Of a stretch of DNA of 25,925 nucleotides, positions 1,027-25,925 are shown in pieces (position 1 is the stretch's first letter; the number at the start of each line of letters is the position of its first letter). The notes beneath the pieces were generated by a model. The model saw nothing but the letters and a program-made list of their open reading frames with translations, did no database searches and was not told the DNA's origin. The position numbers were made by a program, and so were the translations under genes. Origin of the DNA: a virus (lineage: Duplodnaviria > Caudoviricetes); the IMG/VR virus record IMGVR_UViG_3300033076_001064, positions 1 to 25,925 of that record. One strand, given 5' to 3'.

Positions 1027-1036
1027 GGAGTGTGAC

Positions 1037-2054: not shown

Positions 2055-2064
2055 GAGTACACCG

Positions 2065-4199: not shown

Positions 4200-4275
4200 C
4201 ATCGCCATTGCAGGCATACTGCGCAGATCAGGGACGATCAGCGCCTTTATTTCATGACTTACCGGAGATATTGAG

Positions 4276-6609: not shown

Positions 6610-6618
6610 GGAAAACCA

Positions 6619-6876
6619 ATGAGTCTCGACGATACATTGCGGGAGAGAGGCGGCCGGTATGGCGACTTCAAAGACCATGCCAGCATCACCCAGGAACTTA
6701 AAGACGTCATGCGAGCCACCCCGAAATGGGAAGGGCTCAAGCCTTACCAGAAGGAAGCCTTGGAAATGATCGCCCATAAGATCGGGCGCATCCTGAACGG
6801 CGATCCCGACTATCAGGATAGCTGGCTGGACAGTGCCGGCTACGCCAAGCTCGTGGCCGATGAGCTCGACGACTGA
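6619..6876 (+). CDS. DUF6378-like phage protein
   Basis: ERGxxYG...KIGRILNGDPDYxDSWxDxAGY motif. GAGG RBS. Confidence 0.75.
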   Translation: MSLDDTLRERGGRYGDFKDHASITQELKDVMRATPKWEGLKPYQKEALEMIAHKIGRILNGDPDYQDSWLDSAGYAKLVADELDD

Positions 6877-7078
6877 GTGTGCGTTATGTGCCAGAGGCAG
6901 CCATATCTATGACTGTCTCTGTCTGGGCTGCTGCGCCCGTCTCGTGATGTCTGCGAGGCGTGGACGCAAGCAGGCTGCTACCCTGCTCGGCGCGCTCGAC
7001 ATGGCAAGAAAGTCGGTGCCCGGGCGCGTCGTCCCCAAGCGCGCAGCCATCATTGCGGAAGTGAAAAGCCGCATGTGA
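6860..7078 (+). CDS. Cys-rich small hypothetical protein
   Basis: CALC...CLCLGCCARL sequence overlapping the previous stop. Confidence 0.55.
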   Translation: MSSTTECALCARGSHIYDCLCLGCCARLVMSARRGRKQAATLLGALDMARKSVPGRVVPKRAAIIAEVKSRM

Positions 7079-7109
7079 CTGGTCGCGTTTTCACCTGAGT
7101 GGTAGGTTT

Positions 7110-7128
7110 TTCGAACCATTGATTCGGA
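7110..7128. promoter_or_regulatory. Imperfect 19-bp palindrome, putative operator upstream of PrtN-like copy 1
   Basis: TTCGAACCA-T-TGATTCGGA overlaps the GGAGG RBS. A related site lies at 9357-9375. Confidence 0.5.
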
Positions 7129-7135
7129 GGCCACC

Positions 7136-7411
7136 ATGAACACCGCCTTCTTGCTGATGGCTCGCTACGATGCGCGGGCCGTCATTCCCATCGAGACCAT
7201 CCAGAAAGATTTTTTCCCGCATTTGTCGCTGGTCAAGCTCGTCGGCAAATTGCAGGCCGGCGAAATCCCGCTGCCCATGGTGCGCATCGAGCCGAGCCAG
7301 AAGGCCGCCCGTGGCGTCCACGTTACTGACCTCGCCGCCTACATCGACCGTCGCAGGGAGATGGCACAGGTCGAGCTCGCTCGCATGGGAGGCTCGCCAT
7401 GCACGCTGTGA
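7136..7411 (+). CDS. Pyocin activator PrtN-family protein, copy 1 (possible recombination directionality factor)
   Basis: MNTAFLLMAxY...LP...SQKAARGVHxxDLAxYID motif. GGAGG RBS. Confidence 0.85.
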   Translation: MNTAFLLMARYDARAVIPIETIQKDFFPHLSLVKLVGKLQAGEIPLPMVRIEPSQKAARGVHVTDLAAYIDRRREMAQVELARMGGSPCTL

Positions 7412-7626
7412 TCGCGGTCTTCTACGGGCTGTTCACCTGGATGCTGATGGTCGTTTACGCCATCATCGCCCGCCCCGACCTCGTGGGGCTCGCTTTGGTG
7501 CTGGGGCCGTTCATCGCGTCAGGCATGACGCTGGCTTTGCTGCTGCTGGATGCTATCGTCGCCGGCATCGAGCGCGGTGTCCGCCGGCTCATGCCGCAGG
7601 AGAAGAAAAGAAGACCACGTTGCTGA
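7399..7626 (+). CDS. Small membrane protein
   Basis: GGAGG RBS, two TM-like segments, and a basic C-terminus. Confidence 0.6.
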   Translation: MHAVIAVFYGLFTWMLMVVYAIIARPDLVGLALVLGPFIASGMTLALLLLDAIVAGIERGVRRLMPQEKKRRPRC

Positions 7627-7631
7627 CTTTT

Positions 7632-7865
7632 GCTGCCAGAAATCGGCCAAAAACAGAAAATGAGGCACAACAACACACTGATTTTGCACCGTTTTCCTCT
7701 ATGCTCATCCACTCCATCATAGGGGCACAGGAAAAACGCCAGCGATTATAGGCAGTTACATTCATTGTCCGTCCAGTCATATTCGCCGATATTTGGAGCA
7801 CCAAGCCATTTTCGTCAATGAAATCAGCGAACGCTGGATCAAGATTCACCCGTTTCTGCCAGATT
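7632..7865 (-). other. attP-like site copy 1 with dusA-like 5' end
   Basis: The minus strand encodes AYNRWRFSCAPMMEW, resembling the DusA N-terminus RFSVAPMMDWTD. Core is CCACTCCATCATAGGG at 7709-7724. TGCCAGA motifs occur at 7634 and 7857. Confidence 0.7.
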
Positions 7866-8049
7866 CCACGCGCAACCGCTCGATTTCGTCCGCAGCGTCA
7901 CGCACAAGATCGCGCACCCACTCCTCCTGCTGAGCCTCGTGGGCGAACGCTCTCGTTCTCGCAATCGCCATCGCTGACTGCCGGCTCTCCTGCTCGCGAC
8001 GCAGCCGGCTCACGATGTCGTCGGTTTCGGACGGATCAAGCGAGCTCAT
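7846..8049 (-). CDS. Small phage hypothetical protein (DIVxRLR...AADEIERLR type)
   Basis: Recurrent phage motif. ATGA overlap with the upstream gene. Confidence 0.7.
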   Translation of the reverse strand: MSSLDPSETDDIVSRLRREQESRQSAMAIARTRAFAHEAQQEEWVRDLVRDAADEIERLRVESGRNG

Positions 8050-8345
8050 GGCTCACCAGTGGCTTTGGCAATGGCTGCGCGGGCATTGTGAATAGCCATT
8101 CCATACATGGTCACATCAACCGCCGTGATGCATTCCTTGATGGCGGCAAGCAGATCAGGCGCGGCGGCGATCAGGCGGGCGTCGGCATCGCTGAAGACAG
8201 CAGCGAAGACGGAGCCGTCTTCCTCTGTGATGGTCAGAATGGATTGACGTTCGGCAGAGACCGGACACAGCTTTGCGACAGTGCCGTTGTCGCCGCCGAC
8301 CTCAAACAATGACCACGGCCCAGGCGTGTGCGTTGGCTTATTCAT
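8046..8345 (-). CDS. Phage hypothetical protein (HTPGPW...DARLIAAAPDLL family)
   Basis: Well-known phage motif pair. AGGAGAG RBS. Confidence 0.8.
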   Translation of the reverse strand: MNKPTHTPGPWSLFEVGGDNGTVAKLCPVSAERQSILTITEEDGSVFAAVFSDADARLIAAAPDLLAAIKECITAVDVTMYGMAIHNARAAIAKATGEP

Positions 8346-8387
8346 AAACTCTCCTAAACAGTTGAAAACAATGCCATAATTCGTAAA

Positions 8388-9257
8388 TCATAGCTCACCA
8401 ACAAACAGGTCAAGTTGTTTTTGTTCGTTGTCGTTGGATGGGGTTGCGGAAGCGATCCGCTCCTGTTGAAGCGGCCCATAATCAGGGTTCAGCTCACACC
8501 CAAGATATTGCCGCGCAAGGCTGACCGACACCGCAGCCGTAGTGCCACTCCCCATGAACGGGTCGAGCACAATGTCACCGGGCCGGCTGCCTGCTAGGAT
8601 ACATGGCATGATGAGCGATGGCGGGAAGGTGGCAAAGTGCGCACCTTTGTAGGAGTGGGTAGGAACCGTCCAAACGCTGCGGCGGTTGCGAAAGCCATCG
8701 CTTTTGCGCCGAGCAAGTCCACCGTTTCCGTTTGTGCTCACAGCATCCGGGTGAAGCGCAGGCCCGCGCACCCTGCCGCACACCTCCGGCTCGCGCACTG
8801 CCTTGTGGTCGTAAAAATATCGCTCAGACTTGGTTAGAAGGAAAATGTACTCATGCGCTTTGGTGCAGCGGTCGCGCACGCTTTCCGGCATTGGGTTCGG
8901 CTTGTGCCAAATAATGTCCTGCCGCAGCACCCATCCGTCAGCTTGCAGCGCAAGCGCAACTCGCGCGGGGATCATGAGCAGCTGCTTGCCTTTCCCGTAG
9001 CTGTCCCCAATGTTCAGCCACAGCGTGCCATCATCGGCCAGCACATCACGCACGCAGCGGAATACCTCAGCGATCGCCGCAATGTATTCCTCTGGCGTGT
9101 GCTCCAGGCCAAGCTGCCCTTCGTGTCCGTAGTCGCGCAAGCCGAAGTACGGAGGGCTGGTTACGCACATCTGCGCTTTCACGCCATCGGCAGCCCATTG
9201 GCGCATGATGTTTCGACAGTCGCCGAACTCTATGACATTGTTCAAATCAGTTTTCAT
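8388..9257 (-). CDS. Orphan DNA methyltransferase, beta-class N4-C/N6-A
   Basis: Motif IV TSPPY precedes motif I DPFMGSGTT. Also WHKPNPMPESVRDR and HFATFP. Start taken as ATG 9257 (MKTDLN). Confidence 0.92.
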   Translation of the reverse strand: MKTDLNNVIEFGDCRNIMRQWAADGVKAQMCVTSPPYFGLRDYGHEGQLGLEHTPEEYIAAIAEVFRCVRDVLADDGTLWLNIGDSYGKGKQLLMIPARVALALQADGWVLRQDIIWHKPNPMPESVRDRCTKAHEYIFLLTKSERYFYDHKAVREPEVCGRVRGPALHPDAVSTNGNGGLARRKSDGFRNRRSVWTVPTHSYKGAHFATFPPSLIMPCILAGSRPGDIVLDPFMGSGTTAAVSVSLARQYLGCELNPDYGPLQQERIASATPSNDNEQKQLDLFVGEL

Positions 9258-9356
9258 AAGTTGATTTTGATTGGTGAGAAAAACTTGAGCAATGCCTGAT
9301 TCTACCACCATTGCTTCTTGTTTGCAGTTATTTCCTCAAACATAAGCGGATCGGCT

Positions 9357-9375
9357 TCCGAACCACTGGTTTGAA
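9357..9375. promoter_or_regulatory. Imperfect 19-bp palindrome, putative operator between divergent MTase and PrtN-like copy 2
   Basis: TCCGAACCA-C-TGGTTTGAA, related to the site at 7110-7128. Confidence 0.5.
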
Positions 9376-9420
9376 AACAGAACTACCAACAATGACCGCA
9401 TTGACACGCGAATCCGCGAT

Positions 9421-9458
9421 TCGGAGGATTCTTGAGCTAAGCCGCTCGGAGGACTCTT
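9421..9458 (+). repeat. 13-bp direct repeat containing an RBS
   Basis: TCGGAGGATTCTT (9421-9433) and TCGGAGGACTCTT (9446-9458), 12/13 identical. Confidence 0.6.
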
Positions 9459-9740
9459 ATGCCCCTCAACACCGCGTTCCTGCTCATGGCTCAGTATGGC
9501 GGCAGAGCCGTCGTCCCGCTGGAAGAGGTGCGGGTGGACTACTTCGGCCACCTCTCCCCGACCAAGCTGCGCGCGAAGCTCGACGCCGGAGAAATCAAAC
9601 TGCCGGTGATCTGGATCGAGCGAAGCCAGAAATCCGTGCGTGGCGTCCACATCACCGACCTAGCGACCTACCTGGACGAGCGCCGCAAGGAAGCGCACGA
9701 CACCTACCGGAAGCTCAATGGCAGCCCCTTCAGAGCCTAA
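9459..9740 (+). CDS. Pyocin activator PrtN-family protein, copy 2 (possible recombination directionality factor)
   Basis: Same motif as 7136-7411, with about 50/91 identical residues by manual ungapped alignment. GGAGG RBS. Confidence 0.85.
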   Translation: MPLNTAFLLMAQYGGRAVVPLEEVRVDYFGHLSPTKLRAKLDAGEIKLPVIWIERSQKSVRGVHITDLATYLDERRKEAHDTYRKLNGSPFRA

Positions 9741-9763
9741 CCATGGTCTGAAAATCAAACCTC

Positions 9764-10049
9764 GCTGGCAGAAAACAGCCAAAAACAGCGCAGGCAGCTC
9801 GCCAAACCACTGACAAAACAGCACAAAACTCTTTGTCTGCCCAATCCATCATAGGGCTCACCGAGAACCGCCAAGGGCTAAATCGCGAGGAATCACAATT
9901 ACTTAGCACTGTTTGACCCCCGGTATATCATCGAAACATGGTGCGCTTTTAGAACCGTTTTGCCAGATTTTTCCCCTTTTTTCCTTGCCCACTGGCAGAA
10001 ACGCTGCCAGAAAAATGGAGCGTCAGCGAGGCGTTCTGTTTTTTGGCAG
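9764..10049 (-). other. attP site (copy 2) with replacement dusA 5' end and integrase arm-type repeats
   Basis: The minus strand from GTG 9909 encodes MLSNCDSSRFSPWRFSVSPMMDWAD, divergent from the integrase. Core is CCAATCCATCATAGGG at 9841-9856. TG(C/G)CAG(A) repeats occur at 9766, 9961, 9993, 10005 and 10044. Confidence 0.8.
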
Positions 10050-10052
10050 GCC

Positions 10053-11207
10053 ATGGGCACCATCAGCACCTACAAGCGGAAAAACGGGGCGATCTCCTAC
10101 ACAGCCCGCGTCCGCATCACCCGTGATGGGACGGTCATCCATCAGGAGGTGGAGACCTTCGAACGCAAGGCGGATGCCGCGCTGTGGATGAAGAAACGCG
10201 AATCCCAGCTCTCCCTACCCGGAGCCATCGAGGCCATCAAGAACCCTGAGCCGACCTTGGGAGAGCTCATCACCAAGTACCTCGACAGCCTCATCGCCAA
10301 GTCAGGACGCACCAAGGAATACACCCTCAAGGCGATTGCGCGATCCGAGTTCGGCAAGCTGCCCGTGTCGCAGATCACCAGCCAGTCCATTACCGCCTTT
10401 GCCGAGACGCGGCTCGCCGGCAAGGCAGGGCCGGTGACGGTCGGCAATGACTTCGCCCTGCTGGGATCGCTGTTCGAGATCGCCAAGCCGGCCTGGGGCT
10501 ACGCGCTGGATCGTCAGGCGCTCATCGACGCCAAGGCGGTCTGCAAGCGGCTTGGCTACATCAAGCGCGCCAACCAGCGCGACAGACGTCCGACGCTGGA
10601 GGAGCTCGACCGGCTGTTGGCCTACTTCCACGACGCGGCCAGACGCCGGACATGGGTTCTGCCCATGCTGAAGGTGCTGCCCTTCGCCATCTTCTCCACA
10701 CGACGGGAAGCCGAGATCGTGCGCATCCGCTGGGACAAACTCGATCACGAGCGCAAGCGCGCGTGGATCAGCGACGTGAAACATCCCCGCAAGAAACTCG
10801 GCAACCACAAATGGGCTCAACTGACGCCGCAGGCGTGGGACATCCTCATGTCCATGCCGCGCGTCTCCGACCGCGTGTTTCCCTTCACGACCTCGGCGAT
10901 CTGCGCGCAGTTCGAGCGCGCTTGCGATTGGCTGGAGATCGACGATCTGAGGTTCCACGATCTGAGGCATGAGGGCGTGTCGTGGCTGTTCGAGCAGGAC
11001 TGGCCAATCCCTCGCGTGGCCGAGGTGAGCCTGCACGAGGACTGGAACATGCTCCGCCGGTACACGCACATGAACGGCTCAGGCGACAAATACGCCGGCT
11101 GGAAATGGCTGCCCGTGGTGATCGCCCATCAGCAGGGCGAAAAAAAGCCCCGCGCGAAGCGGGGCAAAAAGGCCCTTCAGGTAGAAATCAGTGACAGACG
11201 TCCGTGA
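10053..11207 (+). CDS. int: Tyrosine recombinase/integrase, DusA-associated integrase type
   Basis: N-terminus MGTISTYKRKNG..SYTARVR. Catalytic motifs STRR, DVKHP, FHDLRH, SLH and RRYTH. Divergent from a dusA-like 5' fragment. Confidence 0.92.
   Translation: MGTISTYKRKNGAISYTARVRITRDGTVIHQEVETFERKADAALWMKKRESQLSLPGAIEAIKNPEPTLGELITKYLDSLIAKSGRTKEYTLKAIARSEFGKLPVSQITSQSITAFAETRLAGKAGPVTVGNDFALLGSLFEIAKPAWGYALDRQALIDAKAVCKRLGYIKRANQRDRRPTLEELDRLLAYFHDAARRRTWVLPMLKVLPFAIFSTRREAEIVRIRWDKLDHERKRAWISDVKHPRKKLGNHKWAQLTPQAWDILMSMPRVSDRVFPFTTSAICAQFERACDWLEIDDLRFHDLRHEGVSWLFEQDWPIPRVAEVSLHEDWNMLRRYTHMNGSGDKYAGWKWLPVVIAHQQGEKKPRAKRGKKALQVEISDRRP
11140..11170 (-). terminator. Rho-independent terminator of the late/lysis operon
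   Basis: Stem GCCCCGC/GCGGGGC (11147-11165) with a 5-nt loop, followed by U7 on the minus strand, just downstream of the Rz stop. Confidence 0.8.
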
Positions 11208-12969: not shown

Positions 12970-15900
12970 TCAATCGCGAAAAACGGCGATGGCGTCGCGA
13001 TACAGGGCTTCTTCGTCCTTCTCGATCTCTTTCAGCTTGGCGCGCTTCTCGGCCAGACCGAGCGACTTGTCGGCGTTGATGTCCACCATGGCGTCCCGCA
13101 TCTCTGCTGCCGCCTTGCTGGTCGAGCGGATCATCCGGTCGAAGCTCATCATCTGCGCCTTGTCGGGATTGGACAGGATCGCGTCCATGGCTTCGTCGTC
13201 GCCGGCTTTCTTGGCCTGCTTGAACTCCTCGGACGCGGCATGGGCTTCTTTCACAAGGTCGTAATAGCGTCCGCGTATCGCTTTGACGTCATTGGCCTTC
13301 ACGAAATCCTTGACGATGGGAACATCCGACGTTTCCACGCTGGCGTCCCTGGCCGCGACATTGGCCAGACTGCCGAGATCGGTGACGAACTGTCCAAGGC
13401 CGCCCGTATAGGTGCGCCACAGCATCTTGAGCGTTTCCGGGCTCACCTTGCTGATGTCGTTTTCATAGCGCCCTGCCCCCATGGCTTCGCCGGCAGAGGC
13501 AAGCCCCTGAGACACCGCCTCGAAGGGCGAACCTTTAGTGCCGCGATAGAGCTTCAGGTTGTCCGGGCGATCCTTGGTGAACTCGTTGTCCGGCACGATC
13601 TGCGAACCGAAGGAATTGCGGTTGGTGGCGATCTGGAAGCCGGGCTTGATGATGGTGGGGATAGTTGCGCCCACGGCATCGAGGACGCGATTGTCGGAAT
13701 CCTCGATGTAGAGCCCTTGCAGCGGGAAATAGGCGTTGAGGAACGACGACACGACATGCGCGGCTGCCGCCATGCCTCCGGTCTTCTTGCCTTCCGCCAT
13801 GGCCACGCCTGCCGCATAGAATGGCGCAAACTCCATCGAGACCGGCACACTGATATGGCTGCCGCCAATGTTCATCAGCATGTTCTTGGATCGCGTCTCC
13901 CAGGATTCGCCCAGCCAGCGATCCTCGTCGTCGTCCATGCCCTGGCTGGCCATGTAGAACCCCAGCGCGGCCAGAACACCGAGCGTCGTCCATGCCTGCG
14001 CCCGGTGCTTGCCCTTGACCAGTGTCTTGATGGCGTTCGCTGTGCCCTGCACGGCCGGATTGAAGAAAAGGTAGATGGCTCCCAGCGCCGGCGACAATGT
14101 GCCCTTGCGGTCGAAGTCCACCGTCACGCTCTTGGCGGCCTGAGCGGCTTCTCCCGCGCTCCTGCCGTCCTTTCGCATGGCCATGTAGAGCGCCAGACGC
14201 AGACTGTTTTCCGTCGCCTGATTGAGAACCTCGATGGTGTGCGCCATGCCGCCCACGATCTTGCGGCCGGCCACGCTGGCCGCCTTGGCATAGTTCTTGT
14301 CCTTCAGGTAGCCTGTCGCGCCATAGGCGTCATCGAACAGGCGTTGCAGCGTCTTGCCCTGCTGCTCCAGATCGGACATCCATGACGCGCCCGTCTTGCC
14401 GCCGTTCTGACGGTACTCGTCGAGCATGACGCCAGCCTCGCCAGACGGAACCTTGCCCGTCGCCGCGTAAGCAAACAGAGCCTTCATGGCTGCCGGGTAA
14501 TTCACCCACGCCTTGGCCGCGATCCCTGAGCCCTCGTTGCCGATCATGTTAATCGAGCCCGTCATGGCGTCGCGCGCCATGTTGCGGATGATGAAAGCCG
14601 GATTGTAGCCGGTGTAGACGCGCGCCAGATGGCGATTCATCACCCGCATCATTTCGAGGATCGGGTGCATCTGCCCTTGGTTCAGCGGCCGGAGCTGGCT
14701 TGCCAACTGCTCATCGCCGATGATCTGCATGCGCACAAGCTGGCCATTGATGTAGACGGGAACCTCATTGTCTTGCAGCGGACGCACGAACTCGCGCACC
14801 CTTTCCCCGCCGGCATAGACCTCGAACTGAGCCGCCTGCGGCCCCACGCCTTCCAGGAAAGCCGAGACCTGAGACTTGGAGGTGAAGGTGGCAATCTCAT
14901 TGCCGCCATTCCGCACAGAAAACACCGTGCCGGCCACATAGCGGCCGCGTGGCGGGATACCCACCGTCCAGAGCTTTGGATCAGGGTTTTCCAGCACGAG
15001 CTGCGCCAGCGATTGCCGCGCAAGGTTCTTTTCCCCTGCCACGACCGCCTGCTGGTAGTCGCGCGCGATGTTCTGGATGATGAACTCCTCGCGTTCCTCA
15101 TGCCCCATGGCGCGTTTGATCTTCGGGCCGTATTCGCCATCGCCTTTCAGCGGGACGTAATTCTCATACATCACGTCCAGCGTGGCGTAGGTGTCCGCGT
15201 CGATCAGGCCATAGGCCAGCTTCAGATCGAGCGTGGCTCTGGCGATCTCTCGCGCATCGTCCGCCAGAGCGTGGAGCGTGGCGTTTGTGCGGTACTTGGA
15301 CAGAATTTTCTTGGCATCCGCCGTCGTCATGCCCGATCCGCCGTCCGGCATGTCGGGATTGATCTTGGCCACCGCCTCGTTGCGCTCCTCGGCATGCATG
15401 GCATGCAGCAGTTCGGAAAGCTGCTCGATGGTGTGACCTGACTTGGCCAGCTTCGCCATGAGCGGAGCCGTCATGCCGCGCTCGAAATCCTCAAGCCGGG
15501 CAGCAATCCGCCCAGGCCGCTGGGTCTCGGCACCGTAATAGTTCGCGTACTCGGAAACGGGCTGGCCGGTCATCTTGGAGATGCGCTCCTGCACCTGCCG
15601 TACCCGGTTGAAATTGTCCTGCAAGGATGCCTGAAGCCGGCGGAGCAATCCCTGTTCTGGCAGCGTCAGGCCGGTCGGCTTGGGCGTGGAGCGACTGAAC
15701 GCAGCCTCGGCCATGTCGCGCCCGGTCTGTACACCATTCTCCACATACGCCCGCGCCGGCAGCAGGTAGTCCCGGATGATCTCGGCATCCGACAATTCCA
15801 GATTGCCCATGCCCGGCACGTTCTGCCGCAGCCATGTGCGGATCGCCGCCAGAGCGCGCTTTACAAAGCCAAGCTCAGGCCGTGTCTGCGCCAACTCGGA

Positions 15901-16464
15901 CAGCACTTCCTCGGCTGCCTGCAACAGGTCGTCTTGATTGGTGGCGTCGAGCCCGTACTGTTTCGCCTTGGCCAGCACGTCGCCTTTGCGCAGCGCCACG
16001 ATCTGGTCGAGGACAGGCTTCAGCGCGGAACCGTAGACGCCGCGCAGGCCGTAGTGCCCCAACCCCTCATGGAACAGCACTCTGGTGGCGTCTGCCGGGC
16101 TTTTCAGCTTGGCCGACAGATACACGGTGCCCTGATAGAAAAACCCCTCTGGCTCGCCCGTCGCGCCGCCTGAGCGTTGTTTCTGGTCGGCTGCTCTCAC
16201 CTTGGGCGGAATGGCAGGATCGCTCATGTCGGAAAACACGACAATCTTGGGAGGGTTCTTCCACGCCTTGGCCAATGATGACGCGGTATCGCGCACCATC
16301 GCCCCCTGCTCCATCGAAGGCGCAACAGCCTTGAAAGCCGAGGCAGCGCGATCCGGCAGCAGGCGCGCGAGATTGTCGCCAGACGCCAGATACGCTTTCA
16401 GCGCCGGCTTGCCTTCCAGCGTGATAGGGCCGTTAGGCGTGTTAAACGTATAGCGGCATGTCAT
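12970..16464 (-). CDS. Large polyvalent/internal virion protein with zincin-like peptidase motif and LPD38-like C-terminal region
   Basis: 1164 aa. VLFHEGLGHYG near the N-terminus. NPAFIIRNxxRD, VDFDRKG, YLFFNPAVQG and NRNSFGSQIVP patterns toward the C-terminus, with hydrophobic segments. Confidence 0.7.
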   Translation of the reverse strand: MTCRYTFNTPNGPITLEGKPALKAYLASGDNLARLLPDRAASAFKAVAPSMEQGAMVRDTASSLAKAWKNPPKIVVFSDMSDPAIPPKVRAADQKQRSGGATGEPEGFFYQGTVYLSAKLKSPADATRVLFHEGLGHYGLRGVYGSALKPVLDQIVALRKGDVLAKAKQYGLDATNQDDLLQAAEEVLSELAQTRPELGFVKRALAAIRTWLRQNVPGMGNLELSDAEIIRDYLLPARAYVENGVQTGRDMAEAAFSRSTPKPTGLTLPEQGLLRRLQASLQDNFNRVRQVQERISKMTGQPVSEYANYYGAETQRPGRIAARLEDFERGMTAPLMAKLAKSGHTIEQLSELLHAMHAEERNEAVAKINPDMPDGGSGMTTADAKKILSKYRTNATLHALADDAREIARATLDLKLAYGLIDADTYATLDVMYENYVPLKGDGEYGPKIKRAMGHEEREEFIIQNIARDYQQAVVAGEKNLARQSLAQLVLENPDPKLWTVGIPPRGRYVAGTVFSVRNGGNEIATFTSKSQVSAFLEGVGPQAAQFEVYAGGERVREFVRPLQDNEVPVYINGQLVRMQIIGDEQLASQLRPLNQGQMHPILEMMRVMNRHLARVYTGYNPAFIIRNMARDAMTGSINMIGNEGSGIAAKAWVNYPAAMKALFAYAATGKVPSGEAGVMLDEYRQNGGKTGASWMSDLEQQGKTLQRLFDDAYGATGYLKDKNYAKAASVAGRKIVGGMAHTIEVLNQATENSLRLALYMAMRKDGRSAGEAAQAAKSVTVDFDRKGTLSPALGAIYLFFNPAVQGTANAIKTLVKGKHRAQAWTTLGVLAALGFYMASQGMDDDEDRWLGESWETRSKNMLMNIGGSHISVPVSMEFAPFYAAGVAMAEGKKTGGMAAAAHVVSSFLNAYFPLQGLYIEDSDNRVLDAVGATIPTIIKPGFQIATNRNSFGSQIVPDNEFTKDRPDNLKLYRGTKGSPFEAVSQGLASAGEAMGAGRYENDISKVSPETLKMLWRTYTGGLGQFVTDLGSLANVAARDASVETSDVPIVKDFVKANDVKAIRGRYYDLVKEAHAASEEFKQAKKAGDDEAMDAILSNPDKAQMMSFDRMIRSTSKAAAEMRDAMVDINADKSLGLAEKRAKLKEIEKDEEALYRDAIAVFRD

Positions 16465-16949
16465 GAGCCCATTTCCTGATCAATCAGCAGAACGCCGGCC
16501 TCGTTCTGTCCGGCCCTCGCCAGACGGGTCAGCAGGTCGCCATATTCGCCGATGCTGGTGCGCTGGATGTCCAGGAATTGCAGCATGAACTGCTGCACCA
16601 TGGGCTGATCCGCGACCGCCTTGAACCAGCGTTCGTAGTCCTGTCCGAGCTGCAATTCAGTGTCGTAGGCGATCTCCAAAGCGTCCTGAAGGCTCGCCAC
16701 TTTGTCGGTGATCGCTTCCAGCATCGGCACCTTGGCCACCGTCCCCATGTCATTCATGAAGTCGGCGATCTTCTGGTAGTGCTCCAGCTCGTCGGCCGAC
16801 TCGGAGGCAAAGTGCTTCTGCGCCCCGAAATACCCGATGCGCTGCAACTGGTTCGCCAAGTGCCGGTAGAGGTGCGAGGCGTAAAGTTCAGCCTGTACCG
16901 CTTCGTTCAACGCGGCTTCGTTTGATTTGGAAAGGAGATTCTTCAGCAT
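16461..16949 (-). CDS. Non-heme ferritin (FtnA-like)
   Basis: 162 aa. E21, Y28, E54, H57, E98 and Q129 match the spacing of FtnA E17, Y24, E50, H53, E94 and Q127 as recalled. The C-terminus GVLLIDQEM resembles GLYFIDKEL. Confidence 0.85.
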   Translation of the reverse strand: MLKNLLSKSNEAALNEAVQAELYASHLYRHLANQLQRIGYFGAQKHFASESADELEHYQKIADFMNDMGTVAKVPMLEAITDKVASLQDALEIAYDTELQLGQDYERWFKAVADQPMVQQFMLQFLDIQRTSIGEYGDLLTRLARAGQNEAGVLLIDQEMGS

Positions 16950-19900
16950 TTGATGTCCACCAGCCCTTTGTCGTCCAGTTCTTCGAGAATATCGAAAAAT
17001 TTTTTGTCTATGTACGCAATTCTCTCACCTTCAGCCATGTTCGACAAAGCATCAAGCATGCGCGACCGTTTGCCGCCGTGATTTTCCAGCGCGTAGAAAA
17101 TCAGTTCCAGACCTGAACGGCTGGCAGCCGGTTCTTCAGGCGTTGGCTGGTCTTTCTTCTTCGGCCTGAGCTGGTCGATGATCTCGACATGGCGCGCCTT
17201 GGCGTCGGCCAGTTCCGCTTCCTGCCCCCATGGCTTGACCTGCGCTTCCAGCTTGGGGATGTCGTTGCGGTTGGTTTCTGCCTGAGAACGTGAGCGCTGC
17301 GCCTGCTCGGCCAGACTTTTGACCGTGTTCTGCAAACGAAGCGCAAGGCCGGTTGCGGACGATCCAGGTTCTGCGTCGGTCTGGTACGCCCCATTGCCCT
17401 CGACCGTCAGCACCGCCTTTTTGAGGATGCCTCTGGATACGTCATCGAGGGACAGCTTGAACCCGCCAAAGGTGCCGATCTCGCGATGGTCGTCGCCGGC
17501 TTTCAGCATGGCGTCCACGGCCTTGAGGATCGCCTCGCCGGCTTCGCCATGCTTCTCGTAGGTCGTGCCGGCAATCGTGACAGCAAACTCCTTCGGCGCT
17601 TTCGGCGCGTCGGATTCCATCACCTTGGCTTCCCTGTCGAACCGTTCCGCCTGCGCTTCCAGAGCGCGCATCCTGTCCTTGATGCGGTACTGCTCGCGAT
17701 TGTGCTCGGACTGCGCGTTCTCCAGTTTGCGGATCGCCTGACGCAGGCTCATTTCTTCGAGGATCAGCGGATTGCCGGACGATGCGGCTTTCATCTCGGC
17801 GGAATTGGCCGCTTCGCCGGCAATGTCCTCGATCTCGCGCTCATTTCCTGCGCCCTTGCGCACCTGCTCGATGAAGCGCGCCTTGGCTTCGATGGTCTGC
17901 CACATGCGGCTGTCGAGCGTCTGCTTGGTGGCGTAGCGCATGATCCGCACTTCGAAGCCTTCAGGGTCGGCCTCATAGAGCTTGTTGCCCTGGCGGATGA
18001 TGCGGCCTTCGCGCTGTTCAAGATCGGACGGACGCCATGGCGCATCCAGATGATGCAGAGCCACCAGACGCTCCTGCACGTTCATGCCCGCGCCCATCTT
18101 GGCTGTGGAGCCGAACAGCACACGGATGCGGCCGGAGCGCACCTTGCCGAACAGTTCCTCTTTCTGGAGCTCGGTATTGGCGTCGTGGATGAAGGCGATC
18201 TCGCTTTCAGGGATACCCAGCGCAATCAGCTTGGCCTTGAGATCGTCATAGACGGAGAACTTCGCATCGAGCGCCAGCAATTCATCGGGGCTCATTGCAT
18301 CGAGCTTTTCCTGTGCGGCCTCATCGCCCTGCGCTGCCGCATCCACCAGGGCTTGCAGGGCTGCGCGCTCCTTGCCGGCCGCGCCCTTCGGCGTAGACAG
18401 GTCGATGAACACAAGCTGCGTTCCTCTGTCCTTGCTCCACTGGTCGTAGATGCCCTTGATGTTTTCGGCAGCGACATTGACCTTGGAATCGGGATTGTCG
18501 GGATAGCTTGGGTCGATGAGGCGCATATCGAGCGCGGCTTTCCTCGCGTCCGACATGATCTTGAGCATGTTGTCTGCGCCCTTTTCTGCTTTCTTGGGCA
18601 GGTGCTCGGAGCGCCAGATCAGCGATCCTTCAGGGTACACTTCCTGGCCGTTGTCATTGGTCATCGGCACACCGATGTACTCGGCCTGATCGTTGGAGCG
18701 TGGAACGACGATGTTTTCAGGCTTGCCGGTCGCCACCTTGGGAACGGGCAGCTTTTTGCCCTGCGCCGCCAACTGCCGATTGATGTCGTCGCGGTTGATG
18801 ACGTCACCGAAAGACTGATACCGCTGCATCAGCTCCGGCATGTTGACGAACTTCGCGAAGCGGGAGTTCATCTTGTACTGGCCGGACGGAGACAGTTCCC
18901 AATCCGTCACCACCTCGCCAAACGTCTTTGCCCAGGCGTCGAAATGCGCGATGCCCTGTGCTTTCAGCGTGGGGTAATCCAGATACCGCTGCATGGTGTA
19001 CATTTCGGCCATGGTGTTGCTGATCGGTGTGCCTGTCGCAAACACGACATTCCGGCCGTTGGTGCGCTTCAGAACGGATTGCGTCTTCATAAACATGTCG
19101 GACGCCTTGTTCGATCCGGCTGGATTGCCGAGACCGGCGACGCGCTGCATGCCCGTGGAGAAGCCAAGGTTCTTGAACTCGTGCGCCTCATCGAGGAACA
19201 CGCCATCGACACCCAATTCACTGAAATACAGATTGTCGTCCTTGGCTCCCGTGTCGAACAGGCGCTTCAGCTTTTCCTCAAGGGCGGTTTTCTGCTTCTC
19301 GATCTGCTTGACGTTGCGGCTGTTCTTGCCCTCGGCAGCGCGCATGGCTGCAATCGATGTGTCCATGTCGCTGATCTGCTGACGGATGAAGGCTTCCTGG
19401 AACTCAGGATCGACCTCGACCTTGCCGAATGAGGAATGAGCGACGATCACCGCGTCCCAATCGCCCGTCGCGATCCGGGCAAACAGGCGCTTGCGGTTCT
19501 CCTTCTCAAAATCCTTCTTCGTAGCCGCGAGGATGTTGGCTCCGGGATAGAGCCGCATGAAATCCTCGGCCCACTGTCCGACAAGATGGTTCGGAACCAC
19601 CAGCATGGGCTTTTTCGCCAGCCCCATGCGGCGCATTTCCATGATGCCGGCAATCATCGTGAAGGTCTTGCCTGCACCGACGACATGATCCAGCAGCGTG
19701 GTTCCAGACTGCACCATGCGCCAGACCGCGTTGGCCTGATGCGGGCGCAACTGGATGATGTCGTTGCCCACCTTGCCCGGGAATGTCAGGTGCGAGCCGT
19801 CATAGTCGCGCTGCACGTCCGTGTTGAAGGTGTCGTTATAGATACGCGCCAGACGCACCCGGCGGTCGTCATCCGACCATAGCCAGTTCTTCCACTCGGC

Positions 19901-22900
19901 CTTGATGCGCGTGACCTTTTCATTGGCTGCGGTCGTAGCAGCCTCGTTCAGCGTCCGAGTGCCGTCCTGATGCTCGTCATAGACGGCGATCTGCTTCTGG
20001 TTTGCCGCCGCCTCCATGATCTTCATGACGGGCGTTCTGTCCGTGCCCCATTGCGTGGAGACGGAAGCCGGTATGCGATCCGCGCTCAGCGTCCACGATG
20101 CGGTGATCGGGTTGTAAATAGCCTTGACCGTGCCGCCTTCGGTGATGTGGCGGATAAAATCCTCCATGTCAGAGACGGGCACCCAATGCGCGCCAGTCTT
20201 GACGTCGATGTCGATAGCCTCGATGTCGGCCGGCTGCACCGCTCGCAAAGCCTCGGCGTTCTTCTCAAAGCGCGGCTGCTTGGCGGCCAGCTCAAGAGCC
20301 TGTGCCAGCTTCTTCTTCACATTGCCGGAGAGATATTCCTCACGGGTGACATAGCTGCCGGGAACATCCTCATAGATCAGCCCGTCGAGCTCCTGAGCGA
20401 TCACGTCAGGCGTTTTGCCGTAAAGGCTGGACATGTAGTCCAGATCGACCCGTCCGCGCTCTGACAGCGACGTGACCAGCGCATCCTTGGCTGAATTGGC
20501 CTTCTCTGGTGGCTTGTAGGGCGACTGTGTGCGCTTGAAGAAGATGGCGGCTTTACTGGCGGATGCCGCCCGCGCTTTTTCGCCGGTCTTCTTGGCGACA
20601 GCCGCCGAGATACCCTTGTCGAAATCGTTTTCCAGCGCGGCCAACTGCGGCCATGTCGGATCGTCGCGCATCAGACGCTTATTGGCGTCCCCATTGATCG
20701 GGCCGTTCTCCTTGACGAAAGCGTCATAGGCTGCGTTCAGGCCAGCGCGAGCATTGGCGAGAGCCTTGTCATTGACGCCATCGGTCAACTGCAAGCCGCG
20801 CACGGCGACCAACGCATCGCGCACCTTGATCATGCCGGAGACGCGCTCCTTCGCCTTCTCGTTCGGGAAGGTGACGGGCATGGCCTGCTGTTTGCCGAGA
20901 ACGTCCTCTCTGCGCTCGAAAATCTCACCGCCCTGTTCGAAAACCGAACCAATCTTGACATGCGAAACGTCGTTCAATGGCTCCACCGTCTCCCGCGTCG
21001 GTTCGGCGGTCGGTGCGTCCATGAAGTTTCTGGGCAGATGCGCGACGGCTTCACGCAGAAGCGCAGGCGTGTCCTGCCCGTCGCGCGCCACCAGGGCAGG
21101 ATCGTCTGGGGAGTACATGGAGCCATAGGCTCCGAACTCGCCCAGCATCATGTCGGGGTTGCGGATGAAATACTCGTTGAGCGGAACCGTCTTGCCGGCC
21201 TTGTCGGTGAACTGCTTGACGTCCATCCATGGCTGGCCGTTGCTGGCCTCACCTTCAGCGCGTTTGCGCATGAAGATGATGTCGGTCGTCACTTCCGTGC
21301 CGGCGTTCTTGGCGAAGGCGTTGTTGGGCAGGCGGATCGCACCGAGGAAATCCGCGCGCTCGGCCATGTAGGCGCGAGCCTTGTCACCCGCGCTGTCCAG
21401 CAGGCGGTTTGTCACCACCATGGCCAGCACACCGTTGGGCTTCACCGTATCGAGGGACTTGGCGAAGAAATAATTGTGGATCGAGAAGCCGCTGATCTTC
21501 TTGCGGTTGGGATCGTAGATGCCCTCACGCCCGAACGGTGGATTGCCGATGGCCAGATCGAAGTAGTTGTCCGGTGAGGACAAATCCTGGAAACCGACCG
21601 GAGCCTGAATGTTGGCCTGCGGATAAAGCTGCTTGGCGATGCCGCCGGTGATGTGGTCGAGCTCCACGCCGGTCAACTGGCTGGCATGGCGCAGGGCAGA
21701 CGGCATCAGGCCGAAGAAATTACCCACGCCCACGGATGGCTCCAGCACCCTGCCGCCCTGGAACCCGAAATGCTTGAGCGCGTCCCAGACTGCCGAGACG
21801 ATCTCGGTCGAGGTGTAATGCGCGTTGCGCGTCGAAGTCGCGGCTGCGGCCAGTTCTTCAGGCGTCAGCAGGGCTTTCAGCTCTGCCGCTTCCTTGTCCC
21901 AGCCCTTCGAGACCTCATTATTGTCGCGGTAGAACGCCTGTGGCAGTCCGCCCCATCCGACATACTTGGCCAGTACAGCCTGTTCGTCGCGGGTCGCGTT
22001 GCGGTTTTCGGCCTGCAACTGCTTCAGCAGGCGGATGGCGGCGACGTTCTGCTTGAACTTGGTCTTGGCTCCGCCTTCTCCGATGGCGTCCTCATCCGTG
22101 ATGATGAAGTCGTCGGCGCGATCCTGTGCGCGGGTGCCGTCAGCCGGGATCAGGTCTAGCTGTTTTCCGCCTGAAGGATTCTGTTCTGAAGCGCCAGCGC
22201 CTCCTGATACAGCTTCACCCCGGGGCTTTCCACCTCGTCTGGCGTTTCTTCTGGCGGCAAGAGTAGATACTTCTCCCGCGTCATCTCCCACGCTTCCTGC
22301 GCGCTGTACCCGGCCGCTTCCAGTTCGCTGATCTCCAGATACGTCCGTTCCGCTGCGTCCTTCAGGGCTTCTCCCAGCTTGCCCGTCCTGTTCAGTTCCT
22401 TGAACAGCCTCGGATTGTGCTCCTTCCAGCTCTCCCGAGCCAGGCTGATCCAGTTTTTGAGGTTCATTGGTGGTTCCTTCATTGTCCGTGCCGGTTGGTG
22501 AGAATGTGCTCTCCTTGCCGATAGCCCGCAACACGGCATTGAGCATGTTTGTGCGGTATGGCTCGACCAGTTCCTTCAAGGCGCGGGCGATAGCAGCGGC
22601 AGGGTCTTTTTTGTCGTCGCTCATGCGCAGGGCAAGCGCAACATTGTTGGCCAGACGATAATTACCGCCAACGGCCTTCAGGATTTCGGGATGTTCGAGT
22701 TCCGCAATGGCTGTGTTGACCTGATCAAGTTTCTGGCGGGTGCTGGCGTTCTTCACCCGGCCTTGGTTTTCGAGCTCATCCTGCAACGACGTGCGCAGAG
22801 CTTTGAGCTCGTCGAGCTTGGATGTCTCGGTGTCTTCTGGCGCGTTGAGTGCGTCAAACGCCGCTTTGGTATCCGCGACCGGGGTCATGCCCTCGGTGTC

Positions 22901-25900
22901 CATGCCGGGGTAGTTGCGCGCGGCTTCGTAGAATGACAGCAGGTAAGGCTTGATCTTGGGGCCGAAATCGTCGGTCATCACCTTGGCGTAATCCGCGAAG
23001 GATCGAACGCCGGCCTCGATGTAAGCGCCGGCAATCGTCATGCCGTCCATGACCATTTCAGGGTCAATGCCGCTGTTGAGCTGGCTCAGCTTCGACCGCA
23101 TACGGGCGCGGGCTTTCTCCACCGCATCGGCCGTGAAAATCTTGTTGTTGGCGAACAGATCGGCAGGTGGCGTGTTCTGTGCTGCGCGCAGCTTGGCCTG
23201 CCTGACGGCTTCATCAAGTCCAGCCTGATTGCGTCCCAGTCCGTTGACTGCGCGAGTGCCGTTCTCCGTCAGGTAGACGCTATCGCGCTCGGCCTGGATG
23301 TCATAACCCGGAGGCAACTGTTCGCGCGCCGCCCTGATCGCCTGCATGAAATCGACAATGCCTGAACCTTGGCCGGCAGATGGCTCTGACGCGACTGCTG
23401 TGTCCCGTTTTTCATTCGCAACAACGCGGTCTACTTCTTTTTTGGCAGCATCCAATGAATTGAACGTGCCTGAGTTCTCGATGCCGTCAGCATACGTCCG
23501 CCCCTTTATTTCCCATGTCTCTTTGCCGTTAGTTCTGGTCGGCTGGATGACGTAACCGGAATGCTCGACATCAACGCGCGTGTCGCTTGCAGAAGCCTCA
23601 TCTTCTTGGCGTCTGCCTTCCAGCCATCCGGCTTCGTACGCCGCCTTGTCCTTTTTGCTTCGAATGACGCTTCCTGGCGGTTCCATGCGGGAACCGCGAA
23701 TAGCGTGTGCCAATCCCATTTGGAAAGCATCGCTGTTGCGGTCTACGCCATCGGATTGGGCAGGCGCGTTGCTGTCTTTTCCGCCATCAGGCTTGATGAG
23801 ATCGCGGATCGCCTGATTGGCTGCCTCGTCATCCAGATCCATGTAGTAGAAATCTTCGACGGCGCTGTCGATTTGCTCAGGCGTCACGCCGGAATCAAGG
23901 GCCTTCTGGATCAGCCCGCGATCAAGGCGGTCGTACTTGCCGGCCACCGCCAGCACGGGATTGTCGATGGCGTTGTTGGCCTCGAAGAACCCGTAAGCGA
24001 AGCCTTCCGGCGTCACGCTGCGGGCGTTCTTCGTCGCCATGGACTTGCCGCCGTACTTCTTGTGCATCATCGAACCTTCGGTCGGCTCGACGGGCGCAAT
24101 CGGCAGGTCGCCATTGAAGCGGCCCCAGATCAGCGTCTTCTTGGTGTAATTGTCCCCGATGTGATTAGGGTCGAACGACAGCCGCCATGGTGGCAGTCCC
24201 GTCAAATCCTCGATGCGGCCGACAGGGTTTTCCAGAGCCCACACCGCAGGCTTGAAATACTCAATCGCAGCCAGCGTCTTTTTGACCAGTTGCACCGATG
24301 ATACGGTGCGTCCGTCCTCGTCCTTGGCCTTGAAATGACGTGCGCCAGAGACGGCAAAGTCCGTGCATGGACACGCCGCCAGAATGGCATAGACGTCCTG
24401 CCCGTCAAAATCGCCAAACCAGTCGCCAAAGAACTCGGTCGAGAACTTGGTGACATCGCCCAGGTCAGGGTCGGCCTGGATGTCAAAACGGTAGACCTGA
24501 TAACCGGCTTCTTCCCAAGGCTTCGACCATTCGCCGGAAAGATCGAACAGGGACAGTACCACCTTGTTGCTGTTGGCCGTTGTCTTGCCCTGCTTCTCCG
24601 CGTTTTTCTTCCATGTGGCGATTTCCGCCTTGGCTTCGGCCTGCGTCATCCAGCCCTTGTCGGCAACATAGACGCGCACCTTGTCCTGAAGGCGCACGAT
24701 CTCGTTCTTCTTGGGCGCGTCAAAGACATGCGTGACACCCGCATCTGCGCCGCTGTCGATACGTTGACGGAACGCGGCCGCGATCTGCTTGAGCTCGCTG
24801 ACGCTGACGCCTCGCATCTCGTCGGTCTGGACATGCTCTGGAGCGGTAGCGTTGGGGAGCGTCGATGGCTGTGATGCTGCGGCCTGACCTTGCAGGCTCT
24901 CGACGACTTCTCGCACGACATCAGCCATAGGGCCAAAGTTTTTGTCGAGGCGTTGCGCTGCTGTTTCCAGCACTTCGGCAACACTGGTTACCGTTTTTGG
25001 CTTACGCAATTCTGTGATGGCATCGCGGACAATGGCTACCGCGCTGGTTTCTGGCTCGCCACGGGAATGCAGCTTGCGTGAGTCAGACTTCTGCATCTGC
25101 TCATACAGCTTCTCCAGCCGGTCGGCTGCTGCGCGCTCGGCAGCTCCATTGATGCGAGTGCCTGGAGCATCCTGCTTTTCCTGCGGACGGAGGATGCGGA
25201 TCAGGTCTTTGATCAGTGTCGGATCGCCGGCCTTGTACTCGGCCACGGCCTGATCAATCTGGCTTTGCTGCGCTCCATAGTTTCTGAGCGATGTGACTAG
25301 GTTAGACAGCGCGCTGTCTTCTGCTACTTCTTTCTCTGCATCGGGTTGAACAGCGGCGGCCGTTTGTCCTTGGCCGGCTGACGCTCCCATTTCTTCTGTG
25401 CCTGCGGGCTGCCCGCTGGTACGCTGGTCTGTGACATTGCTAACCTCTGATGATTGTGCTGACGCCGCCTTGGCCACGATGTCCCAGCGGCCGCCCTTGC
25501 CCTTGACGGCTTCGTGCGTGTCATTCAGGCCGTTTTTCGCGATGAAATCTTTGGCCTTCACGCCGTCATTGAACCAAGCCCTGCCGGCCGCGATGCGCTC
25601 CAGCGCCTTGGGGTTTGGTGATGTTCCCGAAACAGATTTCGGTAACATGGATGCAGCCTGCGTCGGCTGGGCACTCCCGGCCCCTTCCTCCGATGCGTCA
25701 CCAGTGGGAGCAGGCTGCAAAACTTCGTCGCGCTTCTTGCGCTTCTTGATCTGCCAGCCGTCATCCTGGCCGACACTGACGCGGTATTCGTTCTCCGGGT
25801 CGTTCTTGGCGAGTGCTGCCGCCGTCTGATCGGCGACGCTGGGGGAGCTGTGAAACTCGACGTCGATCCATTCGCCGGCATTGTAGCGGGCTGTCTCGTC

Positions 25901-25925
25901 CGATTTCTTGGCTTCCTGCTTCAGC
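16943..25925 (-). CDS. Giant DarB-like polyvalent protein (C5-MTase-like + N6-adenine MTase + SNF2-type helicase); 5' end beyond window
   Basis: The frame is open from 25924 (>2990 aa). Motifs: VLSLFD/CPC/ENP (about 24.57-23.97 kb), EPSVGVG and GNPPF (about 21.75-21.53 kb), GAGKT (about 19.67 kb), DEAH (about 19.19 kb) and PWRPSDLEQREGRIIRQGN (about 18.0 kb). Confidence 0.9.
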   Translation of the reverse strand, partial: LKQEAKKSDETARYNAGEWIDVEFHSSPSVADQTAAALAKNDPENEYRVSVGQDDGWQIKKRKKRDEVLQPAPTGDASEEGAGSAQPTQAASMLPKSVSGTSPNPKALERIAAGRAWFNDGVKAKDFIAKNGLNDTHEAVKGKGGRWDIVAKAASAQSSEVSNVTDQRTSGQPAGTEEMGASAGQGQTAAAVQPDAEKEVAEDSALSNLVTSLRNYGAQQSQIDQAVAEYKAGDPTLIKDLIRILRPQEKQDAPGTRINGAAERAAADRLEKLYEQMQKSDSRKLHSRGEPETSAVAIVRDAITELRKPKTVTSVAEVLETAAQRLDKNFGPMADVVREVVESLQGQAAASQPSTLPNATAPEHVQTDEMRGVSVSELKQIAAAFRQRIDSGADAGVTHVFDAPKKNEIVRLQDKVRVYVADKGWMTQAEAKAEIATWKKNAEKQGKTTANSNKVVLSLFDLSGEWSKPWEEAGYQVYRFDIQADPDLGDVTKFSTEFFGDWFGDFDGQDVYAILAACPCTDFAVSGARHFKAKDEDGRTVSSVQLVKKTLAAIEYFKPAVWALENPVGRIEDLTGLPPWRLSFDPNHIGDNYTKKTLIWGRFNGDLPIAPVEPTEGSMMHKKYGGKSMATKNARSVTPEGFAYGFFEANNAIDNPVLAVAGKYDRLDRGLIQKALDSGVTPEQIDSAVEDFYYMDLDDEAANQAIRDLIKPDGGKDSNAPAQSDGVDRNSDAFQMGLAHAIRGSRMEPPGSVIRSKKDKAAYEAGWLEGRRQEDEASASDTRVDVEHSGYVIQPTRTNGKETWEIKGRTYADGIENSGTFNSLDAAKKEVDRVVANEKRDTAVASEPSAGQGSGIVDFMQAIRAAREQLPPGYDIQAERDSVYLTENGTRAVNGLGRNQAGLDEAVRQAKLRAAQNTPPADLFANNKIFTADAVEKARARMRSKLSQLNSGIDPEMVMDGMTIAGAYIEAGVRSFADYAKVMTDDFGPKIKPYLLSFYEAARNYPGMDTEGMTPVADTKAAFDALNAPEDTETSKLDELKALRTSLQDELENQGRVKNASTRQKLDQVNTAIAELEHPEILKAVGGNYRLANNVALALRMSDDKKDPAAAIARALKELVEPYRTNMLNAVLRAIGKESTFSPTGTDNEGTTNEPQKLDQPGSGELEGAQSEAVQGTEQDGQAGRSPEGRSGTDVSGDQRTGSGRVQRAGSVGDDAGEVSTLAARRNARRGGKPRGEAVSGGAGASEQNPSGGKQLDLIPADGTRAQDRADDFIITDEDAIGEGGAKTKFKQNVAAIRLLKQLQAENRNATRDEQAVLAKYVGWGGLPQAFYRDNNEVSKGWDKEAAELKALLTPEELAAAATSTRNAHYTSTEIVSAVWDALKHFGFQGGRVLEPSVGVGNFFGLMPSALRHASQLTGVELDHITGGIAKQLYPQANIQAPVGFQDLSSPDNYFDLAIGNPPFGREGIYDPNRKKISGFSIHNYFFAKSLDTVKPNGVLAMVVTNRLLDSAGDKARAYMAERADFLGAIRLPNNAFAKNAGTEVTTDIIFMRKRAEGEASNGQPWMDVKQFTDKAGKTVPLNEYFIRNPDMMLGEFGAYGSMYSPDDPALVARDGQDTPALLREAVAHLPRNFMDAPTAEPTRETVEPLNDVSHVKIGSVFEQGGEIFERREDVLGKQQAMPVTFPNEKAKERVSGMIKVRDALVAVRGLQLTDGVNDKALANARAGLNAAYDAFVKENGPINGDANKRLMRDDPTWPQLAALENDFDKGISAAVAKKTGEKARAASASKAAIFFKRTQSPYKPPEKANSAKDALVTSLSERGRVDLDYMSSLYGKTPDVIAQELDGLIYEDVPGSYVTREEYLSGNVKKKLAQALELAAKQPRFEKNAEALRAVQPADIEAIDIDVKTGAHWVPVSDMEDFIRHITEGGTVKAIYNPITASWTLSADRIPASVSTQWGTDRTPVMKIMEAAANQKQIAVYDEHQDGTRTLNEAATTAANEKVTRIKAEWKNWLWSDDDRRVRLARIYNDTFNTDVQRDYDGSHLTFPGKVGNDIIQLRPHQANAVWRMVQSGTTLLDHVVGAGKTFTMIAGIMEMRRMGLAKKPMLVVPNHLVGQWAEDFMRLYPGANILAATKKDFEKENRKRLFARIATGDWDAVIVAHSSFGKVEVDPEFQEAFIRQQISDMDTSIAAMRAAEGKNSRNVKQIEKQKTALEEKLKRLFDTGAKDDNLYFSELGVDGVFLDEAHEFKNLGFSTGMQRVAGLGNPAGSNKASDMFMKTQSVLKRTNGRNVVFATGTPISNTMAEMYTMQRYLDYPTLKAQGIAHFDAWAKTFGEVVTDWELSPSGQYKMNSRFAKFVNMPELMQRYQSFGDVINRDDINRQLAAQGKKLPVPKVATGKPENIVVPRSNDQAEYIGVPMTNDNGQEVYPEGSLIWRSEHLPKKAEKGADNMLKIMSDARKAALDMRLIDPSYPDNPDSKVNVAAENIKGIYDQWSKDRGTQLVFIDLSTPKGAAGKERAALQALVDAAAQGDEAAQEKLDAMSPDELLALDAKFSVYDDLKAKLIALGIPESEIAFIHDANTELQKEELFGKVRSGRIRVLFGSTAKMGAGMNVQERLVALHHLDAPWRPSDLEQREGRIIRQGNKLYEADPEGFEVRIMRYATKQTLDSRMWQTIEAKARFIEQVRKGAGNEREIEDIAGEAANSAEMKAASSGNPLILEEMSLRQAIRKLENAQSEHNREQYRIKDRMRALEAQAERFDREAKVMESDAPKAPKEFAVTIAGTTYEKHGEAGEAILKAVDAMLKAGDDHREIGTFGGFKLSLDDVSRGILKKAVLTVEGNGAYQTDAEPGSSATGLALRLQNTVKSLAEQAQRSRSQAETNRNDIPKLEAQVKPWGQEAELADAKARHVEIIDQLRPKKKDQPTPEEPAASRSGLELIFYALENHGGKRSRMLDALSNMAEGERIAYIDKKFFDILEELDDKGLVDIKC
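22156..22467 (-). CDS. Nested out-of-frame gene inside the DarB-like gene (103 aa, helical, possibly TnpV-like)
   Basis: AAGGA RBS before ATG 22467. The sequence is protein-like (MNLKNWISLARESWKEHNPRLFKELNRTGKL...), while the host frame here is a low-complexity G/S/Q/E linker. Confidence 0.65.
   Translation of the reverse strand: MNLKNWISLARESWKEHNPRLFKELNRTGKLGEALKDAAERTYLEISELEAAGYSAQEAWEMTREKYLLLPPEETPDEVESPGVKLYQEALALQNRILQAENS

Follow-up and report, generated by a model that had tools for sequence, protein, structure and literature searches.

The DarB-like gene and its neighbors

The window analyzed here (the whole stretch of DNA, 25,925 bases) is a virus record in which temperate-phage genes are present. 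A DarB-like polyvalent gene, truncated at its 5' end, lies at 16943..25924 (-); 2993 codons are seen, and the product matches phrog_10089 with E=0. Profile matches place an N6-adenine methyltransferase (MTase) and an SNF2 helicase in this single open reading frame (ORF), the fusion seen in DarB-like polyvalent proteins. The MTase, with an NPPF motif (Eco57I, E 1.8e-9), and the LPD36-like helical domain that precedes it span 21065..22099 (-), while the SNF2-type helicase lobes, matched by ResIII, SNF2-rel_dom and Helicase_C, span 17987..19756 (-). The helical domain is a putative LPD36, assigned by a GxGG-type motif (here GEGG) and by its position rather than by a profile; both fit the description in section 14 of PMC5512222. 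In architecture the host ORF thus resembles the DarB-like LPD36-MTase-SNF2 dyad set out there by Iyer (2017). The N-terminal part of the giant protein includes a second domain resembling a C5-cytosine methylase (host aa 445-654, ~23960-24590 (-)), with a Pfam match below the cut-off (E 4e-4) and a phrog_757 match at E 3e-43.

The stop of the giant ORF (16943) overlaps the start of a 162-aa ferritin-like gene, after which comes an LPD38 protein of 1164 aa whose match in the DarB-like PHROG is to the C-terminal part (region 12970-16949 (-)). Three relatives share this end of the host ORF and have the same ferritin-like gene after it, and from these sequences the polyvalent gene appears to be split around it. 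The temperate-phage genes lie at positions 1-11207 and include a RecE/RecT-like pair, PhoH, an N6/N4 methylase (8388-9311) and a tyrosine integrase (9960-11207), with Rz-like and endolysin-like genes after the integrase.

A small gene in the +1 frame

Wholly inside the 2993-codon ORF, in its +1 frame, is an ORF of 103 codons plus a TAG stop at 22156..22467 (-), which we describe as a nested TnpV-like gene on the basis of its reading frame, homologues, selection pattern and structural model. A Shine-Dalgarno-like AAGGA is found 7 nt before its ATG, at 22475..22479 (-), and a second in-frame ATG is at 22482. The initial annotation, made from this DNA alone, had proposed a same-strand, alternate-frame gene with just this ribosome-binding site and start, and we can confirm both. 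An SD-like 4-mer precedes the nested start in 48 of 49 phage loci, compared with 16 of 93 out-of-frame ATGs of the giant gene taken as background; among loci whose enzyme has a short N-terminus, only 6 of 19 have one. No RNA holder is listed.

In the host frame, the overlapped segment (22157..22468 (-)) encodes a linker rich in Gly, Ala, Arg, Ser and Pro, with an FWYILV content of 10% as compared with 26% in the enzyme part; a linker of this composition is probably disordered. A helical host domain, read by eye, lies just 5' of the nested gene (22900..23160, limits approximate, (-)). The linker had been placed immediately before the MTase. It is indeed upstream of that module, but the nested stop falls 21 codons before the LPD36-like GxGG helical domain, and the MTase comes only after this domain. 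The limits of the small ORF had likewise been said to coincide with those of the linker; they do match, although the match is largely circular, because the codons of the small gene dictate the composition of the linker.

An AlphaFold2 model of the 103-aa protein (mean pLDDT 82, pTM 0.58) predicts a four-helix core at residues 3-67 and a C-terminal helix that is less certain than the core. No PDB sequence matched the protein at E<=1, and in a fold search of viral models a single one of 185 matches reached E<=0.001; this is Q8W6J4, which we take to be a fused protein from phage PBC5. Ten residues are near-invariant across 129 diverse members of the family (W14, P19, G29, L31, A38, T42, G53, A59, W60 and R64). 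We considered the possibility that translation of the inner frame acts only in cis, tuning the flow of ribosomes along the giant gene or the stability of its mRNA, with the protein itself incidental. The internal start site is conserved, as this would require, although the near-invariant residues and the existence of intact free-standing copies (discussed below) point to a folded protein, and we consider a cis role quite unlikely. We also considered, and rejected, the idea that translation of the enzyme restarts by coupling once the small gene has ended: no host-frame ATG was found near the stop in any of 68 loci, so the nested gene is not a coupling device.

Conservation and selection in the two frames

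Length by itself says little, because long +1 openings are common in the giant gene: there are five others of at least 100 codons, and when the host linker is recoded synonymously the +1 frame stays open in 58% of cases. An ORF of 103 codons is therefore not above chance expectation, and its status as a gene has to rest on conservation. Here the evidence is extensive. The 103-aa protein has 41 close homologues and 812 homologous clusters (50% identity clusters, E<=0.001), where a lack of homologues would have counted against the gene. A tblastn search found the nested ORF in 21 phage records, including those of PEp14, Pavtok, Stean, Itty13, SopranoGao, LASTA, SJM3, VvAW1, PBC5, Atu_ph08, POI1126 and Mwe-JY07. 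The host frame is open across the nested gene in 70 of 77 distinct anchored loci, a count that excludes three matches with no anchor motif (L050, L093 and L094); the seven misses are one contig edge and six free-standing copies.

Comparison of the two frames indicates which of them carries the constraint. In 47 phage loci, identity is 56% in the small frame versus 38% in the host frame, with the small frame ahead in 1080 of 1081 pairs. Nucleotide identity by small-frame codon position is 0.68, 0.68 and 0.56, lowest at the third position. The comparison of selection in both frames that had been suggested as a check gave pN/pS values of 0.27/0.57 for the small frame and 0.37/0.25 for the host frame (15 loci), with an enzyme control at 0.22/0.57 (14 loci). 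Near-identical contigs, for which 40 of 96 variants are listed, agree: among those listed, all six variants inside the nested ORF are at its third codon positions, and 25 of the 34 outside it are at host third positions. When the small gene is recoded synonymously, the host frame stays open in only 1.1% of cases. Both frames are kept open by selection, and the sequence constraint is on the small frame.

That the ORF is a chance opening with no gene in it is hardly credible: the frequency of long +1 openings would allow it, but it leaves unexplained the selection pattern, the 812 clusters, the free-standing copies and the confident fold. Judged by its sequence record, the conserved 103-residue gene nested in the DarB-like gene is a real gene, as the initial annotation had supposed. 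It had also been called overprinted; if this means that a young gene arose over a linker, the evidence does not support it. A newly overprinted gene should be younger, narrower in distribution and less constrained than its host, whereas here the inner frame is the more conserved, with relatives in four phyla. Since purifying selection acts on the small frame and the family shows the same nesting in Bacillota, the host-frame linker looks like the more passive of the two. We infer that the small gene is probably the older frame and that the enzyme gene came to read through it as a linker.

Few cases are known in which one gene lies fully inside another on the same strand and the pair is conserved across bacterial phyla. 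The comS gene within srfA is an embedded pair, and the products of Rz and Rz1 work together. As in the embedded class of Rz/Rz1 pairs (PMC9144972), a small gene lies wholly inside a larger gene of the same strand, in another frame. Unlike those pairs and comS, the host here is an enzyme gene of 1,700-5,000 codons with a low-complexity linker over the overlap, and the arrangement occurs in both phages and plasmids.

A remote relationship to TnpV

A resemblance to TnpV had been suggested from a residue pattern, and it proves remote but real. Against the TnpV family (PF14198), the nested protein scores 14.1 bits (E 0.048), under the Pfam gathering cut-off of 27 bits, and relatives score 22-23 bits. 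Over the family, a TnpV match at E<=0.01 is obtained for 35 of 129 members, the best at 4.5e-6, and a profile-profile comparison with hhalign gives a probability of 64% and E 7e-5 over 48 columns. The TnpV model in turn recovers the nested ORFs in three of five genomes. One Atlas cluster is 11% TnpV at a score of 0.78, which we treat as a lead only. By these profile comparisons the nested protein is a remote TnpV relative within a TnpV-like superfamily. It differs from TnpV itself in having no TnpV N-terminal segment, a shorter middle, an extra C-terminal helix and a phage origin; what the two have in common is +1-frame nesting in MTase-SNF2 ORFs, seen for true TnpV in L110, L111, L119, L120 and L121.

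In the literature consulted, TnpV (from Tn4451 and Bacillota mobile elements) is described as a free transposon gene only, and in PMC11913394 it is mentioned just as a neighbor of tet(O). A role in Tn4451 excision has been proposed on the basis of homology with lambda Xis (PMC3158075), and the nested protein might by extension be a DNA-binding or recombination accessory. A free TnpV following a recombinase gene in one plasmid (L122, below) would fit such a role. The model of the nested protein is, however, all-helical and the protein net acidic, while Xis has a winged-helix fold, and the nested copies sit inside a late or transfer gene, in this record ~11 kb from the integrase; we regard an Xis-like function as unlikely.

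Distribution of the nested arrangement

Twelve distant MTase-helicase loci, hand-picked from the 110 matches listed, were inspected for a comparable ORF. In nine of them, a +1-frame ORF of ~100-180 codons precedes LPD36: Bcep22, Ralstonia phage Gerry, Pseudoalteromonas phage Y7, P. putida pGRT1, a Xanthomonas plasmid, an Arthrobacter plasmid, an Enterococcus plasmid and two gut records. The ORFs in both gut records are true TnpV (E 7e-32 and 1e-24), and those of Arthrobacter and Bcep22 match TnpV weakly (E 0.008 and 0.08). The pGRT1 and Xanthomonas ORFs, with no TnpV match and an hhalign probability of 10%, and the Y7 ORF, with no direct match, are counted for their position alone; the TnpV likeness of L116 is a reading by eye. 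No +1 ORF was seen before LPD36 in the remaining three loci, P1 darB (where DarB starts at LPD36), an Agrobacterium pTi and a Streptococcus snf2, so the enzyme family can do without the nested gene.

A TnpV search of plasmids returned 27 records, five of them under helicase or SNF2 annotations. Four plasmid records were examined, and in three TnpV is nested in the same frame of ORFs of 1,985 to 2,073 or more codons; in the fourth, L122, TnpV is free. Verrucomicrobiota-type elements also nest the small gene, although their enzyme starts only 15-40 codons upstream of it and has no phage domains. Matches were found in 6 of 301 Verrucomicrobiota genomes sampled and in none of 400 other sampled Pseudomonadota genomes. 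As most loci were found through the small protein and the distant loci were hand-picked, the sample is biased and yields no prevalence figure. On these sequences, nesting recurs in phages and plasmids of several bacterial phyla (four so far).

The short-N MTase-helicases have a motif of the QLDLF, QLDFF or QLSF type at their start, just before the crossing with the nested gene, in 14 of 21 short-N rows (the motif region is in rows L064-L066, L071-L077 and L096-L105, and also L113 and L118). We take it to resemble a sliding-clamp-binding motif. A QLDLI is present at the stop of the small gene in this record and is not kept in relatives.

Free-standing copies and fusions

Six copies of the small gene are free-standing, with an intact small ORF and a host frame interrupted by 1-12 stops; the three of these seen in full have no MTase-helicase in the locus. 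In a tree of 85 columns, the free copies arise among nested phage copies, which takes three label changes, although the starred branches leave a single origin possible. The free copies L080, L081 and L084 are 73% identical to the protein of this record and lie in non-phage islands, and in L081 and L084 the ATG is overlapped by the stop of an upstream 345-aa lipoprotein-like ORF.

These copies suggest another reading, that the small protein works independently as an effector in trans, with a target in the host or in a competitor, such as a defense system or the MTase-helicase of another element, and is nested only for co-expression and compactness. The position of free copies inside nested phage clades favors this, as does the company they keep, since their island neighbors presumably resemble UmuC, integrase, type III R-M and Sir2 genes. 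TnpV-carrying IMEs are moreover described as inserting into snf2 genes of S. suis ICEs (PMC9815147). Against it, the nested position is held across four phyla, the target has yet to be named, and a median net charge of -7 per 100 aa is mild for a DNA mimic, with Ocr as the comparison. It is the main alternative to the role proposed below, although we lean away from it.

The small domain is also found fused. In P0060 and P0186, and in P0043, P0044, P0061, P0071 and P0191, it is joined by our reading to a domain like the helical one upstream of the nested gene, in both orders; this upstream domain is a possible second candidate partner. In phage PBC5 (L014, NC_003324.1), the annotation has two genes, gp22 and gp21, in place of one DarB-like gene; the split is at a one-base gap with respect to Atu_ph08, and gp22 ends in the small domain in frame. 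The latter likely explains a match to phrog_938 ("endolysin"), which we attribute to the frame switch in PBC5 and rejected as a clue to function.

Both PBC5 gp22 and the database proteins that fuse the upstream helical domain to the small domain could be taken to mean that ribosomes translating the N-terminal half of the giant gene undergo a programmed frameshift and that the ORF supplies the C-terminus of the product. We find this very unlikely. The gap between PBC5 and Atu_ph08 is ~47 nt upstream and is what a sequencing error or mutation would give, the +1 frame opens just 2 codons 5' of the ATG in several phages, and of 49 loci 4 have slippery-like motifs, whereas 48 have their own start with an SD-like 4-mer.

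Possible role of the nested protein

TnpV, DarB-like dyads and embedded genes have each been described before. In a literature search limited to main texts, few of them in subscription journals, we found no description of TnpV-like genes nested in MTase-helicase enzymes; the main text of PMC5512222 contains neither "TnpV" nor "overlap".

DarB-like proteins are virion cargo in phages P1 and JC1 (PMC9024508, PMC9144972); virion packaging and cis antirestriction are reported for P1, and virion presence only for JC1 (PMC5512222, PMC9144972). The LPD36-MTase-SNF2 dyad has been proposed to act on transferred DNA (PMC5512222, section 14). P1 DarB, in whose gene no nested ORF was seen, needs a small helper, Ulx, which aids its localization (PMC9024508). 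Ulx offers a functional analogy at most: it is a small protein encoded beside DarB that acts as its helper, but it comes from a separate downstream gene, and no sequence similarity to the nested protein was found, so that homology between them is rejected.

We put a probability of about 40% on the nested gene encoding a dedicated chaperone or inhibitor of the MTase-helicase module, translated from its own ribosome-binding site on the mRNA of the giant gene. The small helical product would bind the LPD36-MTase-SNF2 module, silence the enzyme while it is in the producing cell and keep it ready for export until its packaging or transfer with the DNA. Such restraint, and a state fit for export, are plausible needs of a folded translocase that modifies DNA and is made in the donor. 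Translation, binding and the chaperone or inhibitor role are all things we infer. Supporting this reading, the nested gene stays 5' of LPD36-MTase whatever lies N-terminal, be it long phage domains (49 loci), short N-termini (a 17-row clade) or Bacillota domains. Linkage of gene and enzyme is nonetheless weak evidence of binding, because nesting itself forces co-inheritance. The scarcity of SD-like 4-mers in short-N loci is a counterpoint, and the persistence of free copies with no enzyme in the locus, together with enzymes that have no nested gene, favors the independent effector instead. A prediction of the small protein in complex with LPD36, the MTase and the middle region (host residues 1270-2055) scored 0.00 twice, with controls not folded, and weighs neither for nor against binding.

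The nested arrangement suggests that a component of DarB-like antirestriction has been missed in Bcep22-like phages, in which P1 helper genes had been looked for (PMC9144972). It also gives the uncharacterized TnpV family a home context. More broadly, and in our view rather doubtfully, the TnpV superfamily could be an ancient co-encoded inhibitor or chaperone of LPD36-MTase-SNF2 enzymes, hidden in the +1 frame in at least four phyla, with free "transposon" TnpV genes being escapees that other elements or hosts would use in trans against the enzyme.

The nested gene has been invisible to annotation, having an entry of its own in none of the 21 phage records. For one plasmid the reverse is seen, the gene table (known to be incomplete) naming TnpV and omitting the surrounding 2,073-codon helicase ORF. 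In the Itty13 record (L009, NC_070969.1), three antisense hypothetical genes are annotated over a DarB-like ORF of more than 4,100 codons that is itself unannotated.
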